Of a DNA stretch of 64,000 nucleotides, positions 8,214-16,412 are shown piece after piece. How positions within the stretch are numbered: the stretch's first letter is position 1; the number at the start of each line of letters is the position of its first letter. The stretch covers positions 256,001 to 320,000 of the forward strand of contig OY760935.1 of assembly GCA_963664295.1 (NCBI GenBank). The letters run 5' to 3'. Made by a program: the position numbers and the translations under genes. Below the pieces are notes generated by a model that worked only from the letters and a program-made list of their open reading frames with translations, was not told the origin of the DNA and made no database searches. Source of the stretch: Candidatus Altimarinota bacterium (GTDB lineage: Bacteria; Patescibacteriota; Gracilibacteria; CAIRYL01; GCA-016699755).

Positions 8214-8303
8214 AGCGAGTAATCGACTAACTTTCTTAGGAGTGATAGAGTGAAATTTACTTATTTACCTTAAATTAAGATAAAAACACAAAAAATACAT
8301 AAG

Positions 8304-8337
8304 AAAAAAACCCAGATTCACGTTATGTGTCTCTGGG
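8304..8337 (-). terminator. intrinsic terminator
   Basis: Minus strand cccaga-gacacataacgtgaa-tctggg followed by a T7 tract. Confidence 0.65.
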
Positions 8338-8452
8338 CCAATTGTGGATCGATCGAGTCTATTACCTTGCAGGTATATTCTCTTTATCGTTCAATGCCTT
8401 TTCAGGCGTTGAAGATTTGCAAGTTGATAAACCAAGCAATCCACAATTGGCC
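8336..8452 (-). ncRNA. candidate structured RNA (unclassified)
   Basis: 16-bp closing stem ggccaattgtggattg/cgatccacaattggcc enclosing hairpins ttcaacgcct-GAAA-aggcattgaa and tacc-tgcaa-ggta; lies between the orphan stop codon and a terminator. Confidence 0.5.
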
Positions 8453-8484
8453 TGAGTTAGGCGGTCGGTTGTCAAAGAAAAAAA

Positions 8485-8958
8485 TTAGTTCTTGAATGCG
8501 ACGGTTCTTTTGAAAACAATTCCGCCGCACTTTTTTGTATTGTTGTGTACGATGGACATGGACATGGTCATATCCGTATCATTCCTGAGCAGTATAATGA
8601 AATATTCTGCGATTTTGTAGCCTCCGTCATCAAATCTGATGTGGTAGGTAGACGGCACTGTTATCTCCTCTCCGGGCGGAGCAAAAACCTTTATCTTTTT
8701 CATGTCGTTGTCCAAGATTCCTTTTTCAATCTTGCGACATTCCTGCCCAACGCCTTTTTTGTTCGTTACGTGGGGCATTACTGACACGGTTGTGCCTTCC
8801 GGCAGAAATTCCACAGCCCTCTTAGATAAGAGAGCAAGCGCTTCTTCCGCATTCAGCGTTGTGTTGGCGGCGCTGGTGGTGGTGGTGGTGACGGCGCTGA
8901 TGCCGATGATAACGACAAAAAAGATTGCCTTGAGAATTGCGATTGTGTTGTGTTTCAT
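8485..8958 (-). CDS. secreted hypothetical protein (GC-richer orphan)
   Basis: 157 aa with a signal-peptide-like N-terminus; strong SD AAGGAGGAG before the ATG; visibly higher GC than the flanks. Confidence 0.8.
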   Translation of the reverse strand: MKHNTIAILKAIFFVVIIGISAVTTTTTSAANTTLNAEEALALLSKRAVEFLPEGTTVSVMPHVTNKKGVGQECRKIEKGILDNDMKKIKVFAPPGEEITVPSTYHIRFDDGGYKIAEYFIILLRNDTDMTMSMSIVHNNTKKCGGIVFKRTVAFKN

Positions 8959-9089
8959 AGTGCTCCTCCTTGGTGAGTTGGGTTGTTGCGCGTAATTGCG
9001 CGGGTTGTGTTGTAAAGATGTTGTTTTTTCCTTTGACCACCAATTGAAACTCTAATTTTAAAATTCCAATTTGGTGATCAAAACCGATG

Positions 9090-9143
9090 TTGTCAAAGAA
9101 CAGGTTGATGCAATTTAACATCTTTTTTTATATTTGTCAAGAG
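9090..9143 (-). promoter_or_regulatory. sigma70 promoter plus boxA-like site
   Basis: TTGACA (9140-9135), 17 nt, TAAATT with extended-10 TG, then TGTTCTTTGACA (9102-9091); near-identical to 13677-13729. Confidence 0.75.
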
Positions 9144-9153
9144 AAAAAAACTT

Positions 9154-9757
9154 CGTTATCCTGAGCGAGCCTTTAGGCGAAACGAAGGATCTCCCGTTGT
9201 CATTACTGTTGAATTACCTAAGGCAGGATTTGAGCGCATGGACAAGGAGATTGCGGGTCGTAGCCCGCAATGACAGCCCAAAAAGTCCGCAATGACAAAT
9301 ATGATGTCATCCTGAGTTTAATTCAGGATCTCCCGTTGTCATTACTACACAATCACCCATGGCAGGACTTGAGCACATGGACAGGGAGATTGCGGATCAA
9401 GTCCGCAATGACAAATATGATGTCATCCTGAATTTAATTCAGGATCTCCCGCAGTCATTGTTGTTGAATTACTTAAGACAGGACTTGAGCAAATGGACAA
9501 GGAGATTGCGGATCAAGTCCGCAATGACAAGACAGGACTTGAGCAAATGGACAAGGAGATTCTTCGCTCCATTTCATTCCGCTTAGAATGACAGCAAGGG
9601 TGTATTTACGCTCAGAATGACACCTCTTGCCTCCCGAGATTGCGGGTCAAGCCCACAATGATACCCCAAAAAGCCCACAATGACACCTCCCTAAAAAGCC
9701 CGCAATGACAAAATGGATTGCCACGCCCTTCGCCCTTGGCGTTGTCCTCAGAGTGAC
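9154..9757. repeat. array of REP-like palindromic repeats
   Basis: Multiple gtcatcctg...ggatctc and gagattgcgg...ccgcaatgac units with a conserved linker. Confidence 0.9.
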
Positions 9758-10722: not shown

Positions 10723-12339
10723 ATGAAAAAATTTGAAAAACACCTAAAAAAGGCCTTACCAATAATAAAAAAAGTAATAAAAAATACAGCTTTACCGCTA
10801 TTATTGCTCATTTTTGTATGGTTTTTTTATATCAATAATTCACAAATAAAAATAAATCTAAAAAAAATTGACAATTTAACAGGCTCAGTTAATGCATTAG
10901 TGGAAGAAAATCATCAATTGCGTTTATTTGCCTTTGAGTTATGCACTAGTAGTAATATGCTGGGAGATTATTTGTTTTCAGAAGAATATAATTGCGCGCA
11001 GTTTTTTCCACAAATTGCAGAAGAGCAAGAGGTAAATGTCTCTTTGGAAAGCCAGTTTATATCATTTGTGAACACTTTTTTTGTTCAAGGGCAGGTTGAA
11101 GAACAAGCAGAAAATCCAGAAGAAATAGACGTAGAAACCAACGAAGAAAATGAAGTTTTAATCAATAATATAATTAGCGTAAGCAAAAGTGCTGATTTTT
11201 CCTCTAGCTTAAGCGCAAATCTTGCAGAACAAAGAAAAGCAGATATGCAAGCCATTGTGCAAAATGACAAAATAGCCCTTTATCTTGCTGATTTTGGTCT
11301 TCATCTTGAGCAGGAAAATGAAAACTTACTTAAATTAAAAAAAGAGGAAGAGATTTTAGCTGATATTTATTGGGATCAAGATTCTCTTGATGTAAAAGTT
11401 AATGACCTGACCAGACAGGCAATAATTTCTCTTGGTACTTTTAATTTGGTAAACAAAAAAGCCCAATATATTACAGAAAAATACAGCACATTTGATTTGG
11501 AAGCATTTTTGCAAAGTGTTGATAAGCTTGAAAAACACAATGCTTCTCTGGAGAATTATCTTATCTTAGGTCGTCATGGGGCTAATTTAGATACTATGAT
11601 TTTAGCTTCTGTTGATTTTAAAAAACAAAGAATTACCTTAGTTTCTATTCCTCGTGATTTATGGCTTAATTCACGCAAATTAAATTCATATCATGCTATT
11701 TATGGCATGCCGGTATTTAAACAAAAAATTGAAGAAATTACAGGGCAAAAAATAAAACATTATGTTCTTATTGATATGATGGCTTTTGTTGAGGTTGTTG
11801 ATATTTTGGGCGGTATTGATTATGAGTTTACAGAGCCTTTAATAGATCCATCTTATAGAACAGTGGATAATGGCATTGAAGGCACTCTTTATTTTGCAAA
11901 AGGTGAACATCATTTAAACGGCACTCAAGCCTTAAGAGTTGCAAGAACTCGCCATACTTCTAGTGATTTTGCTAGGGCAGGGAGACAGCAAGAAATATTA
12001 AAAGCAATAAAAAGCAAAATAGACGAAGAGGGGAAAGCAAAGTCTTTTATCAATATGCTTCCGATTTTGATGGAAAAAGTAGAAACAGATTTTGCGCTTC
12101 ATGAGTTAATTCCTTTAGTTATGAAGTCTAAAGATTTTGAGCTTAGAACAGGAAAAGTAATGTCCACTTCAAATATTTTGGTTTCGGAAATGATTGAGGT
12201 GACTCCTGTGACTGTTAGTGTTGAGCCTGTTGCTGAGGGCGAGGAACAGCCTGTTATGAAAGCTTATGCTCTTAAACCTCGTGATGACGATTGGGCATTG
12301 ATTGCTAAGTTTATTTTGAGTGCGATTTATTCTGACTAG
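10723..12339 (+). CDS. LCP (LytR-CpsA-Psr) family protein
   Basis: DTMILA..LVSIPRDLW..KLNS..GGID..LNGTQAL..ARTRH.SDFARAGRQQ; N-terminal TM; start placed at ATG 10723, after a TATAAT. Confidence 0.92.
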   Translation: MKKFEKHLKKALPIIKKVIKNTALPLLLLIFVWFFYINNSQIKINLKKIDNLTGSVNALVEENHQLRLFAFELCTSSNMLGDYLFSEEYNCAQFFPQIAEEQEVNVSLESQFISFVNTFFVQGQVEEQAENPEEIDVETNEENEVLINNIISVSKSADFSSSLSANLAEQRKADMQAIVQNDKIALYLADFGLHLEQENENLLKLKKEEEILADIYWDQDSLDVKVNDLTRQAIISLGTFNLVNKKAQYITEKYSTFDLEAFLQSVDKLEKHNASLENYLILGRHGANLDTMILASVDFKKQRITLVSIPRDLWLNSRKLNSYHAIYGMPVFKQKIEEITGQKIKHYVLIDMMAFVEVVDILGGIDYEFTEPLIDPSYRTVDNGIEGTLYFAKGEHHLNGTQALRVARTRHTSSDFARAGRQQEILKAIKSKIDEEGKAKSFINMLPILMEKVETDFALHELIPLVMKSKDFELRTGKVMSTSNILVSEMIEVTPVTVSVEPVAEGEEQPVMKAYALKPRDDDWALIAKFILSAIYSD

Positions 12340-12365
12340 GTATAGGTAGTTGGTAAGAAATAGTG

Positions 12366-13590
12366 TGTCATCCTGAGCGAGCCTGTGCTCTGTCATCCTG
12401 AGCGAGCCTTTAGGCGAAGCGAAGGATCTCCCGTTGTCATTACTGCACAATTACCTAAGGCAGGATTTGAGCACATGGACAAGGAGATTCTTCACTCCAT
12501 TTCACTCCGCTCAGAATGACAGCAAGGGTGTGTTTTTCGCTCAGAATGACACCTCTCGAGATTGCGGGTCAAGCCCGCAATGACAATCCAAAAAGTCCGC
12601 AATGACACCTCTCGAGATTGCGGGTCAAGCCCGCAATGACAATCCAAAAAGTCCGCAATGACATGATTCTCTGGATTATCGGATCAAGTCCGATAATGAC
12701 AAAAAAAGAGGCAGGTTCCTCGCAATGACAAATATGATGTCATCCTGAGTGAGCCTTTAGGCGAAGCGAAGGATCTCCCGTTGTCATTACTGCACAATTA
12801 CCTAAGGCAGGATTTGAGCAAATGGACAAGGAGATTGCGGGTCAAGCCCGCAATGACAATCCAAAAAGTCCGCAATGACATGATTCTCTGGATTATCGGA
12901 TCAAGTCCGATAATGACAAAAAAAGAGGCAGGTTCCTCGCAATGACAAATATGATGTCATCCTGAGTGAGCCTTTAGGCGAAGCGAAGGATCTCCCGTTG
13001 TCATTACTGCACAATTACCTAAGGCAGGATTTGAGCAAATGGACAAGGAGATTGCGGGTCAAGCCCGCAATGACAATCCAAAAAGTCCGCAATGACATGA
13101 TTCTCTGGATTATCGGATCAAGTCCGATAATGACAAAAAAAGAGGCAGGTTCCTCGCAATGACAAATATGATGTCATCCTGAGTGAGCCTTTAGGCGAAG
13201 CGAAGGATCTCCCGTTGTCATTACTGCACAATTACCTAAGGCAGGATTTGAGCAAATGGACAAGGAGATTGCGGGTCAAGCCCGCAATGACAATCCAAAA
13301 AGTCCGCAATGACATGATTCTCTGGATTATCGGATCAAGTCCGATAATGACAAAAAAAGAGGCAGGTTCCTCGCAATGACAAATATGATGTCATCCTGAG
13401 CGAGCCTTTAGGCGAAGCGAAGGATCTCCCGTAGTCATTACTGCACAATTACCTAAGGCAGGATTTGAGCAAATGGACAAGGAGATTCTTCGCTCCATTT
13501 CACTCCGCTCAGAATGACAGCAAGGCTGTTTTTTCTGCTCAGAATGACACCTCCTGCCTCCCGAGATTGCGGGTCAAGCCCGCAATGATA
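12366..13590. repeat. large REP-like array containing four tandem 217-bp units
   Basis: gagatt anchor at 12614, 12831, 13048, 13265 and 13482 (period 217); also a 56-bp duplication at 12558/12614. Confidence 0.95.
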
Positions 13591-13676
13591 ACCTTAGCGT
13601 AAAGCCTTTTTCTCTGTACAAAAAATTTGTTCATAAATCCATAAAACAATATGAAGACCTGATTTTTATAAATTAA

Positions 13677-13729
13677 CTCTTGACAAATATAAAAAAAGAT
13701 GTATAATAAATCAACCTGTTCTTTAACAA
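13677..13729 (+). promoter_or_regulatory. sigma70 promoter plus boxA-like site
   Basis: TTGACA (13680-85), 16 nt, TATAAT (13702-07), then TGTTCTTTAACA (13717-28), one mismatch from the rrn boxA TGCTCTTTAACA. Confidence 0.8.
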
Positions 13730-13731
13730 TT

Positions 13732-13829
13732 CGTTTAAACAAAGAGTGGATTGCCTGCTTTCAAAAAAAACACCACGCTCTAGCGTGAGTGCTTTCACGC
13801 AAAGTAAGCAATCCATCTCTTTGCAAACG
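13732..13829 (+). ncRNA. candidate structured 5' leader RNA
   Basis: Stem cgttt..caaagag-tggattgc / gcaatcca-t-ctctttg..aaacg; internal alternative hairpins cacgc/gcgtg and gcgtga/tcacgc. Confidence 0.5.
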
Positions 13830-13990
13830 CGGTTTTCATTTTTTTACTAACTGGATTTAGTCAGCTTTCCCGCCATTATTCTGCGTTTTTTTCCTCGTTG
13901 TATTTTACCCATTTCCCCATTGACGGAACCACACATTAACTTAGATTGCACGACCCACAGAGGCGTGCGCATCCAAAAAGGAGATTTACC

Positions 13991-15001
13991 ATGAGCAAAT
14001 TCACCAAGTTTTTCGTTTTTATCGTTTTGTTGCTTGCTACATGCAACCTTGCGCAAGCGCACTTTCCCTACAAAAGGTTCGATGGCTTTAGGCTTCAAGC
14101 CTTTGGTTATTGGGAGGCCCGGAAAATCCCTAAAAGGATTGAAAGGCTGTCGCTGGTGTCCTTGGCGGACAGGCCCGCCATAGAAATGACTTTTCTGTCA
14201 TTTCATGACAAAGTGGCCATGTTGGCATATGACCCAAACGCCAACCTTTCCACAAAGAACGCAAGGGCGTTGGCCTCTTTCCATGGCCACACATTAACCC
14301 TTGATTTGCATGATCCGGCAACTGAGGTTGCTAGGAAAATTGCGAAGTTCAAGGGCGATTGTTTGGAGTTGGACTTTTATGACAACCCGAGCGTTGAGGC
14401 TGCCAAGGCATTCGCAACTTTTAAGGGCGAGATGTTGGAGGCGAAGTTTAGGGAGAAGCCGACCATTGAGGTTCTTAAGGCACTGTTCAGCTTTGGCGGC
14501 AAGACGCTGAAAGTTAGGATCCCTAATAATCTGCAGTCTGACATTGCATCTGCCATTGCTGCTTTTGGCGGCAATGAGCTGAAGGTTGTCTGCGGTAAAC
14601 TGACCGTTGAGGCCCTTAAGGCGTTGTCCGGCTTTGGCGGCAGTTCACTTTCTGTCACGGAGCACAGTGCGGAGCATCAGCTTACAGCCCTGCACGGAGA
14701 AGAGATTGCTGCTTTCAATGGCGATCATCTGAAGCTCAGGTTGCGCAAACAGCCTGACGAAGACTTTTTTAAGGCTTTGACCAAGAGTTTTTGCGGGCTT
14801 ACAATTGACGCCGAAATCTTGGATTGTAATCGGCCGATTGACCTCAATAACTTTGTTGTCAACGGAGGACCAGCAGTGAGTCTCAAGCTTTATCAGACCA
14901 CTGAGGAGCCTTTGGAAATCATTCCGCCGACAGAATTGTATGATAGGAATAAAATTTCAGTTACGATCAACTACGCCTACCAGGGCGTTCCGTTTCCGTA
15001 G
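13991..15001 (+). CDS. secreted protein with ~24-aa LRR-like solenoid repeats (GC-richer orphan)
   Basis: SD AAAGGAGA before ATG 13991; signal peptide ending AQA; repeats A.ALA.F.G..L.L....P..E. One counted 60-nt line is 52% GC, versus 27% in a counted purA line. Confidence 0.8.
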   Translation: MSKFTKFFVFIVLLLATCNLAQAHFPYKRFDGFRLQAFGYWEARKIPKRIERLSLVSLADRPAIEMTFLSFHDKVAMLAYDPNANLSTKNARALASFHGHTLTLDLHDPATEVARKIAKFKGDCLELDFYDNPSVEAAKAFATFKGEMLEAKFREKPTIEVLKALFSFGGKTLKVRIPNNLQSDIASAIAAFGGNELKVVCGKLTVEALKALSGFGGSSLSVTEHSAEHQLTALHGEEIAAFNGDHLKLRLRKQPDEDFFKALTKSFCGLTIDAEILDCNRPIDLNNFVVNGGPAVSLKLYQTTEEPLEIIPPTELYDRNKISVTINYAYQGVPFP

Positions 15002-15030
15002 GTATACATTTGCAAAGAGATGGAATTACG

Positions 15031-15067
15031 GCACGGGGCGGTTTATCCGCCCCTGCTAGTTTTTTTA
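15031..15067 (+). terminator. intrinsic terminator
   Basis: ggggcgg-tttat-ccgcccc stem followed by a T tract. Confidence 0.75.
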
Positions 15068-15074
15068 TTGTGTT

Positions 15075-16412
15075 TTAATAAATTCCCAAATACTCATCAA
15101 CTTCCCAATCTGAAACATGCAAACGATATTTGTCTGCTTCGGCTTGTTTGGCTTGTAAATATTTTGCATGAGTTTGTTCACCAAAAACATCCAGAGCTAT
15201 TTTGCTACCTTCAAATTTTTTCAAAGCCTCTGGCAAAGAATCAGGCAAGGTGCGCACACGCATTCTTTGAGCTTTTTTATCTGTAAATTCATAAATATTT
15301 TCTTCAATAGACTCAGGTGGAGTCATTTTTTTCTCTATACCATCAAGTCCAATTGCAAGCATGGTTGCAAAAGCAAGATAAGGATTAGAAGAAGAATCAG
15401 GACAGCGAAGTTCGCAACGAGTGGCCTGAGATTGACCTTTTAAGAAAATAGGCACACGAATAAGTGCAGAGCGATTTGTTTGTCCCCAAGCTACATAAAC
15501 AGGCGCTTCATATCCTGGCACCAATCTTTTATATGAATTTATTAGAGGATTTGTCACAGCTACAATTTCATGAATATTGCTCAATTGACCAGCAATAAAT
15601 TGTAGTGCTGTTTTTGATAATTTATATTTTGTATTTTTTTCATCATAAAAAGCATTTTTATTATTTTTAAATAAAGATTGATGGACATGCATGCCAGAGC
15701 CATTAATTCCTGCAATTGGCTTAGGCATAAAAGTTGCATGCAAGCCCCATTGACGAGCAACAGCCTTGAGAGCGGTTTTAACAGTAATCACAGCATCGGC
15801 TTGAGTAATTGCATCAGAATATTTAAAAGCAATTTCATGTTGAGATTCAGCTACTTCATGGTGAATAGATTCAACATCAATGCCCATCTGAGAAACAACT
15901 TCGCTCATTGCTTGGCGAATTGGTCCTGCTTTATCCATTGCGTAATCAAAATAACTAGCACGATCATGGGTAATTAAAGCTGGAGCACCATCTTCGTCGG
16001 TTTTAAAAAGAAAAAATTCTAACTCAGGTCCAACAAAATAATTATCAAAGCCCATTTTTTGTGCTCTTTTTATTTGTTTTTTGAGAATTTGCCGAGGATC
16101 GCCATCAAAAGGATTGCCATCTGGCAGAAAAACATCACAAATAATGCGAGCAACAGCAGAGTCGCCATTGCTTTCCCAAGGAACAAGAGCAAATGTGTCT
16201 AAATCTGGTTTAAGATACATATCAGACTCATAAATACGAGCAAAACCTTCAATAGAAGAGCCATCAAACCAGATGTTGTTTTCAAGAGATTCTTTAAGCT
16301 TGCTAACAGGCGTTGTCACGCTTTTGACTGTTCCTAAAAGATCACAAAATTGGAAATTAACAAAGCGAACATTGTGTTCTTTACAGAATTTTAAAATTTG
16401 CTCTTTGGTCAT
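15075..16412 (-). CDS. glnA: glutamine synthetase type I
   Basis: FDGSSIEGF, GPELEFFLF, HHEVA, ATFMPKP, NGSGMHVHQSL, SYKRLVPGYEAP, NRSALIRVP. Confidence 0.98.
   Translation of the reverse strand: MTKEQILKFCKEHNVRFVNFQFCDLLGTVKSVTTPVSKLKESLENNIWFDGSSIEGFARIYESDMYLKPDLDTFALVPWESNGDSAVARIICDVFLPDGNPFDGDPRQILKKQIKRAQKMGFDNYFVGPELEFFLFKTDEDGAPALITHDRASYFDYAMDKAGPIRQAMSEVVSQMGIDVESIHHEVAESQHEIAFKYSDAITQADAVITVKTALKAVARQWGLHATFMPKPIAGINGSGMHVHQSLFKNNKNAFYDEKNTKYKLSKTALQFIAGQLSNIHEIVAVTNPLINSYKRLVPGYEAPVYVAWGQTNRSALIRVPIFLKGQSQATRCELRCPDSSSNPYLAFATMLAIGLDGIEKKMTPPESIEENIYEFTDKKAQRMRVRTLPDSLPEALKKFEGSKIALDVFGEQTHAKYLQAKQAEADKYRLHVSDWEVDEYLGIY

Follow-up and report, generated by a model that had tools for sequence, protein, structure and literature searches.

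The 64,000-nt stretch of Candidatus Altimarinota bacterium contig OY760935.1 analysed here (GenBank assembly GCA_963664295.1, forward-strand positions 256,001 to 320,000; hereafter the window) carries an orphan gene bracketed by two perfectly complementary 16-nt segments. This locus, W, is one of eight cassettes (W, A-D and F-H) in the source genome G000, which is complete at 1,215,430 nt with 33.5% GC. The elements of W are collected in Table 1. Its promoter is of a style also found before the sister cassettes and the rRNA genes, transcription probably starts near 13714, and all positions but one of the boxA-like motif fit the gamma-proteobacterial boxA consensus given in bioRxiv 10.1101/091223. 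The leader is predicted to fold into a long hairpin with the paired core of its 5′ arm at 13740-13754. An earlier sequence-only reading of the window took the whole of 13812-13827 as the 3′ arm of this hairpin; that holds for 13812-13823, which are firmly paired, and not for 13824-13827, where the pair probability is at most 0.5.

The same reading described a perfect 16-bp inverted repeat around the open reading frame (ORF), and the repeat is indeed exact: 13812-13827 and 15009-15024 are reverse complements, and each 16-mer is single-copy in the 1,215,430-nt genome. The second arm, which had been placed 8 nt past the stop codon, starts at the eighth base after it and ends 10 nt 5′ of the terminator stem. 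When the W leader (277 nt) and 3′ untranslated region (UTR; 33 nt) were shuffled, the longest perfect inverted repeat was 12 bp and none of 5000 shuffles gave 13 bp or more. The genome contains four perfect inverted repeats of 16 nt whose arms are 0.5-2 kb apart, so the 16-bp length alone is not unique, although the other three are A/T-rich. What is decisive for the repeat is that its layout recurs at paralogous loci. Rfam returned nothing of note over window positions 12000-16000 (a single chance-level match, E 0.086) or over the sister loci scanned.

Table 1. Features of locus W, its surroundings and the sister cassettes. Positions are those of the window unless marked G000 (genome coordinates).
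Feature	Position	Strand	Remarks
Sigma-70 promoter	13680..13707	+	12/12 consensus matches, A/T-rich spacer
BoxA-like motif	13716..13729	+	very start of transcript
Leader hairpin 5′ arm (A)	13740..13761	+	predicted fold
Leader hairpin inner part	13762..13800	+	variable; A-rich loop and small stem
Leader hairpin 3′ arm (A′)	13801..13827	+	13812-13827 = leader strand of long-range helix
Possible toehold	13824-13827	+	free or weakly paired in predicted hairpin
Shine-Dalgarno (SD) site, canonical	13978..13983	+	7 nt 5′ of ATG
Orphan ORF, 336 aa	13991..15001	+	GC 0.48, GC at third codon positions (GC3) 0.57; ~24-aa repeats
Trailer strand (copy of A)	15009..15024	+	perfect complement of 13812-13827
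Intrinsic terminator	15030..15067	+	stem 15035-15053, extendable, then U tract
Repetitive extragenic palindromic (REP)-like array	12500..13590	.	palindromic; perfect 217-bp tandem units; ends ~90 nt before W promoter
Sister cassette C	8465..9140	-	promoter at 9140, boxA-like motif 9103-9090, leader hairpin
Cassette C helix strands	leader 9043-9024, trailer 8484-8465	-	17 Watson-Crick pairs, 2 G-U, 1 mismatch
Cassette C ORF, 157 aa	8958-8485	-	
Cassette A	G000 619089	-	
Cassette B	G000 574210	-	
Cassette C	G000 265140	-	
Cassette D	G000 332870	+	
Cassette F	G000 89020	-	
Cassette G	G000 170182	-	
Cassette H	G000 364370	-	

Eight cassettes and their predicted leader-trailer pairing

At all eight loci a promoter, a boxA-like motif, a long leader hairpin, an SD site, an orphan gene, a trailer and a terminator follow one another, the trailer being the post-stop segment complementary to the 3′ arm of the leader hairpin and the boxA-like motif lying within ~45 nt of the -10 box. 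W, A, B, C and D were found by BLAST of leader and protein together with pattern and composition scans, F and G through their high GC3 and a relaxed promoter-boxA scan, and H through its SD site. The relaxed scan gave 15 sites in G000 against 5 in the reversed control; these are seven cassettes, the transfer-messenger RNA (tmRNA), one unknown RNA and six sites judged to be chance. The scaffolds are of three types (W/A/B/D/G, C/H and F), with leaders 76% identical between A and B, 80% identical over 49 nt between D and W, and 3′ UTRs 74% identical between C and H. In C and H this similarity (74% over 90 nt) belongs to a long structured 3′ UTR past the trailer (window 8300-8484 and G000 363670-363852, both on the minus strand). 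Only the W, A and B proteins are related to one another (24-33% identity), and the cassettes thus carry unrelated cargo on reused scaffolds, as stand-alone promoter-gene-terminator units among housekeeping genes. The sequence-only reading did not mention the boxA-like motif or the anomaly in SD sites and codons, nor did it notice the other seven cassettes.

With arms picked by script, the own trailer of each of the first five leader arms beat every non-family window among 838 post-stop windows. Under one arm rule for all loci, the null windows (out of 984) that paired as well as the own trailer numbered 0 for W, B, C and D, 3 for H, 12 for A, 46 for G and 166 for F, for which the rule took an inner stem; with hand-set arms the own trailer ranks 19/992 for F and 36/992 for G. 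For W, C and D the own trailer is a better partner than the trailers of the other scaffold families. A stricter test scanned each leader in full against 60 shuffled trailers and gave 0/60 for each of W, A, B, C and H. Two scores were set aside: an automated arm picker on 1.5-kb targets failed to tell true loci from null ones, and an ungapped pairing score missed bulged or distant trailers (cassette B at p 0.62, and the locus of a related genome, G034).

Among W, A and D in register, four helix positions have changed on both strands (as read by eye). The six helices free of bulges together contain 87 Watson-Crick, 4 G-U, 1 A-C and 6 other pairs. The leader hairpin of W/A/B/D shows a compensatory change on both sides at 9 of its 29 consensus pairs, and the transcribed-strand leader folds better than the opposite strand in seven of the eight cassettes, the exception being W. 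Compensatory and G-U changes are RNA-type signatures and, at the level of sequence, point to an RNA leader-trailer helix and not to a DNA switch. Complementarity, whose loss in homologous loci was the refuting observation named in the sequence-only reading, is kept there by way of changes on both strands.

Folding predictions place the two structures in competition. The W leader (13710-14000) folds at -70.6 kcal/mol (z -4.15, with 0/200 shuffles as stable), the trailer of naked W RNA is predicted to fold back onto 14989-15002, over the stop codon, and forcing the W helix costs +8.2 kcal/mol, or +2.3 kcal/mol with the ORF held single-stranded. Moving the 5′ end inwards by 26-38 nt makes the helix dominant in the models of W, A, C and D; the effect is less steady in B and hardly present in a related locus, G174, and in two others (G144 and G034) the helix is present already in the intact model. 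The models thus do not predict that W simply refolds: the long helix would require the 5′ arm to be lost, or assistance from ribosomes or from Nus tethering, and it is likely that processing precedes its formation. The helix lies ~150 nt upstream of the SD site in W, 100-200 nt from it across W, A, B and G, and ~2 nt from it in H.

Translation signals, composition and cargo

AGGAG or GGAGG precedes six of the seven cassette genes tested (the seventh has AAGGA), as against 5 of 808 other ORFs of at least 150 codons, scored before the first ATG with starts not curated (shifted control, 10/808); H, found later, also has one. The 16S 3′ end of G000 is without the canonical anti-SD sequence. The seven cassette SD sites would pair at -5.6 to -11.6 kcal/mol with the canonical anti-SD versus -2.9 to -6.6 kcal/mol with the own tail (-8.7 versus -4.2 kcal/mol for W), and none of the seven has followed the own 16S tail. 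The canonical sequence survives in 9 of 13 16S tails recovered from 20 genomes of the order, one of them that of a family member, G001, indicating that its loss is recent and patchy; another 16S (G004) is also without it, and G002 and G003 carry a different variant.

Base composition sets the same genes apart. GC3 is 0.44-0.60 in seven cassettes and 0.31 in H, versus 0.22 +/- 0.05 for the genome, and the seven stand within the top 14 of 992 ORFs by GC3, where the other seven were judged short spurious frames. The genes for EF-Tu, GAPDH, L10, L12 and GlnA have GC3 of 0.15-0.23 and no SD. At fourfold sites the GC of the cassettes is 0.33-0.72 versus 0.20, and their promoter regions have a GC of 0.08-0.27. 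Fourfold-site G+T is 0.50-0.57 in the four leading-strand cassettes and 0.36-0.42 in the four lagging ones, with native genes at 0.56 and 0.49. This comparison has eight genes, three of which are paralogs and one of which lies ~3 kb from the terminus; the exact p is 1/70, and 1/15 when the paralogs count once. This strand bias, together with A/T-rich promoters beside high fourfold GC, argues against fresh import, although on small numbers. The first 420 nt of six of the eight cassettes fold better than synonymous shuffles (z below -2), a measurement made on the cassettes alone.

The cassette products are 104-382 aa long. Pfam has no family for the W, A and B proteins, and the W protein has a single relative, at 27% identity, among 5.8 billion proteins; a profile of the three matched 362 proteins through a repeat of 23-24 aa. 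The structure model of W (pLDDT, the predicted local distance difference test score, 75.7) shows an alpha/beta solenoid and best matches leucine-rich repeat (LRR) proteins, at E 4e-4 to 7e-4 and 11-12% identity, so that the label of LRR-like orphan given in the sequence-only reading is a fair one. An Atlas search returned unnamed Planctomycetota-rich clusters at 0.89-0.90, which we take as a lead only. By eye, the N-terminus of W is signal-peptide-like, C and G encode small secreted-looking proteins, and D and H encode small membrane-looking ones. The F product is an FG-GAP-repeat, lipoprotein-like protein with relatives at 21-44% identity over part of its length, and the G protein has an 80%-identical relative elsewhere. 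Both Lgt and LspA are encoded in G000, so the idea of a lipoprotein cargo dependent on host enzymes failed. Elsewhere in the genome, an A/T-rich LRR-like gene with the W-type repeat (G000 384391-385437, plus strand) is by eye without cassette features; it is a possible native source of the W family.

Cassettes and boxA-led genes in other genomes

A strict promoter-boxA pattern matched 14 of 301 genomes of the class, G000 included, against 4 in the reversed control. Four of the 13 loci outside G000 are cassette-like (G005, G034, G144 and G174); the remainder comprise genes with short leaders, two tRNAs that follow a 16S gene, a possible non-coding RNA and chance matches. One further locus, G006, was added by a relaxed pattern, and its arms resemble those of F by eye. 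The shuffled-trailer test gave 0/60 for both G144 and G174 and 1/60 for G006. A 14-bp perfect helix surrounds a two-gene operon in G144, and in G034 the 5′ arm of the hairpin pairs with a trailer ~77 nt past the stop codon at -35 kcal/mol, an rRNA-like arrangement. In the G144, G174, G034 and G005 stretches the genes led by an SD site are the boxA cassettes, a gene that immediately follows the G144 cassette and a single enzyme gene. The GC3 of the relatives' cassettes departs from that of their neighbours in either direction; the G005 cassette matches its neighbours. In yet another genome, G165, a boxA-led, highly structured, terminator-ended stretch of ~330 nt with no ORF is a possible non-coding RNA.

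Across GTDB the promoter-boxA pattern occurs in 97 stretches, and results were obtained for 80 of them. Within these 80, a script places it before rRNA in 13 and before tRNA in 4, and inspection by eye places it before tmRNA in 9; it also leads many Patescibacteria genes. Its position before rRNA, tRNA and tmRNA supports the boxA reading of the motif. The full bracket of boxA, hairpin and trailer is a subset of boxA-led genes. In the 19 of the 80 loci that are titled Patescibacteria, an SD site precedes 14 of 18 boxA-led genes versus 9 of 67 neighbours, the former figure being inflated by a choice of starts that favoured SD-bearing ATGs. As in G000, a boxA-like motif stands directly before a tmRNA-like sequence in several delta-proteobacterial genomes.

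Searches for the leader shared by W, A, B and D gave five matches in a metagenome scan, all judged to be chance, and none in a viral scan; BLAST of the leader against phages matched the promoter alone. Viral sequences yielded 13 promoter-boxA matches, nine of which are without a downstream ORF and are mostly tRNA arrays by eye, and no cassette was seen among the 13, trailers lying outside that check. An SD-plus-ATG pattern run over 20 genomes of the order gave counts close to its reversed control, with boxA upstream in 0 of 30 sampled matches, a result that bears neither on new cassettes nor on the link between SD and boxA.

A probable rRNA-like role for the helix, and rival explanations

The closest parallels lie in the stable RNAs of the same genome. 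BoxA-like motifs precede the 16S, the 23S, the tmRNA and a tRNA-Lys of G000; the 16S (568657-570160) and 23S (1134527-1137523) genes are unlinked, and each has its own boxA-like motif and leader-trailer helix (-37.6 and -51.6, respectively). The gene for NusB lies directly upstream of that for RNase III, stop touching start (G000 206117-206904, minus strand), and RNase J and RNase Y are also encoded; RNase E/G and reverse transcriptase (RVT_1) were not found in the complete genome. The published rRNA operon (rrn) system comprises boxB-boxA-boxC, NusA, B, E, G, SuhB and S4, with the 16S and 23S helices cut by RNase III (PMC10250234, PMC8632103), and boxA-bound Nus factors can present the 5′ strand to the 3′ strand that pairs with it in the RNase III site (PMC8632103). 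The rRNA leader-trailer helix is reported as essential for 30S formation, with a 2- to 3-fold contribution from boxA (PMC10250234). B. subtilis NusB binds boxA-like RNA, and Rho is dispensable in that organism (PMC13753749). A 14-bp helix joining the 5′ UTR to the 3′ UTR, just 5′ of the terminator, controls cleavage of the hbs mRNA by restricting RNase Y (PMC5737220).

We consider it reasonably probable that the W repeat is part of an eight-fold expression cassette in which an RNA leader-trailer helix closes the message once the 5′ arm of the hairpin has been cut or trimmed, setting maturation and lifetime much as in rRNA precursors. By analogy with E. coli, NusB-S10 would bind boxA and hold the 5′ end on the polymerase. 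The leader hairpin is predicted to fold at once and would shield A′ while the gene is transcribed, after which RNase III may cut its 25-30 bp, or RNase J or Y may shorten the 5′ arm. The trailer would then invade from the toehold at the hairpin base and pair with A′, and the paired 5′ end next to the terminator might resist RNases J and Y, as in B. subtilis hbs. Such a closed form would stay translatable because the SD site lies outside the helix. Of the RNA switch proposed in the sequence-only reading, one part is supported, namely an RNA helix that joins the two ends in competition with the hairpin of the leader; the other, in which the full-length transcript refolds of its own accord at a cost of +8.2 kcal/mol, is not supported. 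An RNase III consensus that seemed to fit the W hairpin was given no weight; according to PMC1540722, alignment revealed no positive determinants.

Several observations weigh against this interpretation. The equilibrium prediction for the intact W transcript retains the local hairpin, with a long-range pair probability of ~0. There is some circularity in the 5′-shortening test, which takes away the competing strand and has a linker standing in for the ORF. In the whole-leader test D (9/60), F (10/60) and G (15/60) do not go beyond shuffled trailers, nor do G005 (18/60) and the near-stop window of G034 (29/60); the duplex energy of the 3′ arm against a whole 1.5-kb target is unremarkable in five G000 loci (z 0.0 to -2.0). 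Cassettes were seen in two of seven family relatives and not in the other five, and most boxA-led genes elsewhere have a short leader and no trailer pairing (~8 of 47 loci at p <= 0.02). The 16S trailer pairs with boxA and the bases just after it, whereas cassette trailers pair with the 3′ arm of the hairpin. Finally, of the rrn Nus complex members searched for, NusB was found and SuhB was not; with Rho also not found in G000, and above the cut-off in 0 of 20 genomes of the order, the E. coli complex would be incomplete and antitermination without an obvious target.

W would act in the manner of both the leader-trailer helix of rRNA and the UTR helix of hbs, and it belongs to neither class. 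With the rrn leader (PMC10250234 and PMC8632103) the cassettes share a strong promoter, a boxA near the 5′ end and complementary strands flanking the product, and G000 encodes NusB and RNase III of that machinery in adjacent genes. In contrast to it, a cassette encloses a protein-coding gene (in W the 336-aa ORF, with no Rfam match of note) in place of an rRNA, first holds its leader strand in a local hairpin, and closes with 14-20 bp compared with ~30 bp or more for the own rRNAs; boxB and boxC were not identified in the cassettes, and SuhB and Rho are the missing factors in G000. The likeness to hbs consists of a helix of ~14 bp from a structured 5′ UTR to a pre-terminator 3′ UTR, a strong SD site, and RNases Y and J encoded in the genome. 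However, hbs is one housekeeping gene, whereas the cassette scaffold is reused for unrelated orphan genes, and the hbs leader strand lies downstream of hairpins and not inside one, with no mention of boxA in the accessible part of PMC5737220. The suhB and parE-like genes of gamma-proteobacteria likewise have boxA in the 5′ UTR of a protein gene, but there, according to bioRxiv 10.1101/091223, it is near the start codon, and its effects are repressed translation and termination by Rho. The boxA of the cassettes lies 100-300 nt upstream and is combined with a trailer helix, in a genome where Rho was not found. The missing CCTCCT motif at the 16S 3′ end recalls Parcubacteria, also of the candidate phyla radiation (CPR) (PMC9297842); the accessible part of that work mentions no SD-led, boxA-led gene class, and here the CPR class is a different one and the loss is patchy within a family. 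BoxA in mRNA leaders (bioRxiv 10.1101/091223) and anti-SD loss in Parcubacteria (PMC9297842) have been published separately. Our literature search, with subscription journals largely outside its coverage, returned no description of mRNAs bracketed by boxA and a leader-trailer helix, or of host-directed SD-led mRNAs, in Patescibacteria.

The cassettes might alternatively be imported morons, brought from phage or mobile DNA with rRNA-style scaffolds and SD sites and now expressed or decaying in place with the helix as inherited baggage. Foreign-looking GC3 and SD sites, the stand-alone position between housekeeping genes, the proximity of four of the eight cassettes to a REP-like cluster (within 131 nt) and the patchy presence within the family would all fit such an origin. 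It nevertheless appears unlikely: no donor was found, the best relatives being those of W (27%) and, over part of its length, F (21-44%), and relatives of W or G occur in no phage record or viral contig. The viral promoter-boxA matches, in a check that left trailers aside, held no cassette, and the 80%-identical relative of the G protein lies elsewhere. The strand bias fits this chromosome and the promoters are native in composition; no reverse transcriptase was found, and no integrase or transposase is seen beside the loci inspected, an inspection that was not a family search.

Patescibacteria live as symbionts, and a further reading gives the cassettes a purpose in addition to the leader-trailer helix rather than a different structure. 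Transcribed like stable RNA through boxA, sealed at their ends and written in foreign SD and codon usage, the messages (or their DNA) would be passed to a host and translated there as envelope effectors. The separation of cassette SD sites and GC3 from native genes, beside a 16S without canonical anti-SD, speaks for this, as do signs of long residence (A/T-rich promoters and a native-direction strand bias with fourfold GC still high) and the recurrence of the SD/boxA split in the G144, G174, G034 and G005 stretches. On the other hand, the canonical anti-SD is intact in 9 of 13 16S tails of the order, so that the SD sites may serve or have served the own ribosome, and pairing with the own 16S tail still reaches -6.6 kcal/mol. 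Lgt and LspA are encoded in the genome itself, the strand-bias support is small (eight genes, three paralogs, p 1/70 or 1/15), the GC3 of H is only 0.31 and the G005 cassette matches its neighbours. We regard export as quite unlikely; owing to the SD and codon mismatch, delivery of mRNA to a host is testable even as a minority reading.

In type I toxin mRNAs such as hok/sok and aapA, an early local hairpin is followed by long-range pairing with the 3′ end. The cassettes resemble them in this order of events, and the sequence-only reading had drawn that analogy. A translational switch of this type, in which the 3′ end refolds a metastable leader hairpin so as to block or allow translation, would accord with the A..A′..ORF..A layout and its toehold, with a trailer predicted to cover the stop codon, from which a terminating ribosome could free it, and with the H helix, which ends ~2 nt before the SD site. 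The analogy is nonetheless a poor fit, and such a switch is very doubtful: the hairpin is predicted to be the stable form and not a metastable one, the SD site is outside the helix and 100-200 nt from it in W, A, B and G (~150 nt in W), and the products are long secreted or membrane proteins of 104-382 aa, among them the 336-aa LRR-like protein of W with its signal-peptide-like N-terminus, and not short toxic peptides. No Rfam antitoxin family was found over the scanned loci, though an antisense RNA of unknown type may exist. The alternative of the sequence-only reading makes the arms sites of DNA recombination at which the gene is inverted or excised. It could draw on the perfect 16-bp arms of W, the evident swapping of cargo between homologous scaffolds and the REP-like arrays adjoining four of the eight cassettes. 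It is highly improbable, since the paralog arms contain bulges, G-U pairs and mismatches and are not alike from one scaffold family to another, an inversion would leave the gene facing away from its promoter and disrupt the covarying hairpin, and no recombinase is seen among the nearby ORFs. As for sequencing reads, the contigs of three runs of one sample left 13764-15600 uncovered.

If the leader-trailer helix does close these messages, boxA and such a helix, known as a route for building rRNA, would serve here as a reusable scaffold for accessory mRNAs in a genome in which Rho was not found. Its use on mRNAs would show a role of Nus factors in mRNA folding and maturation apart from antitermination. 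From sequence alone the scaffold flags a small class of genes with SD sites and codons unlike the habits of the cell, and the eight cassette genes form a short list of candidates for how Patescibacteria act on their hosts. Should export prove true, it would amount to mRNA delivery between bacteria.

Some further features of the genome were recorded. The REP-like array beside W is context only, any link to the cassette being unproven; a second array of the window lies at about 9134-9710, and of the 34 REP-like clusters genome-wide none is between 762 kb and 1036 kb. At G000 779140-778730 (minus strand) a promoter and boxA-like motif are followed by a structured transcript of ~410 nt with complementary ends and no long ORF on its strand; it has no Rfam match and is a candidate for an undescribed or very divergent stable RNA. 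ARAGORN reports only one tRNA-Pro in G000; at least one tRNA-Lys-like gene, near 557 kb, escapes it, and copies of that gene occur in repeats at 135-136 kb. The replichores are unequal by cumulative GC skew, with a minimum at ~982 kb and a maximum at ~330 kb.

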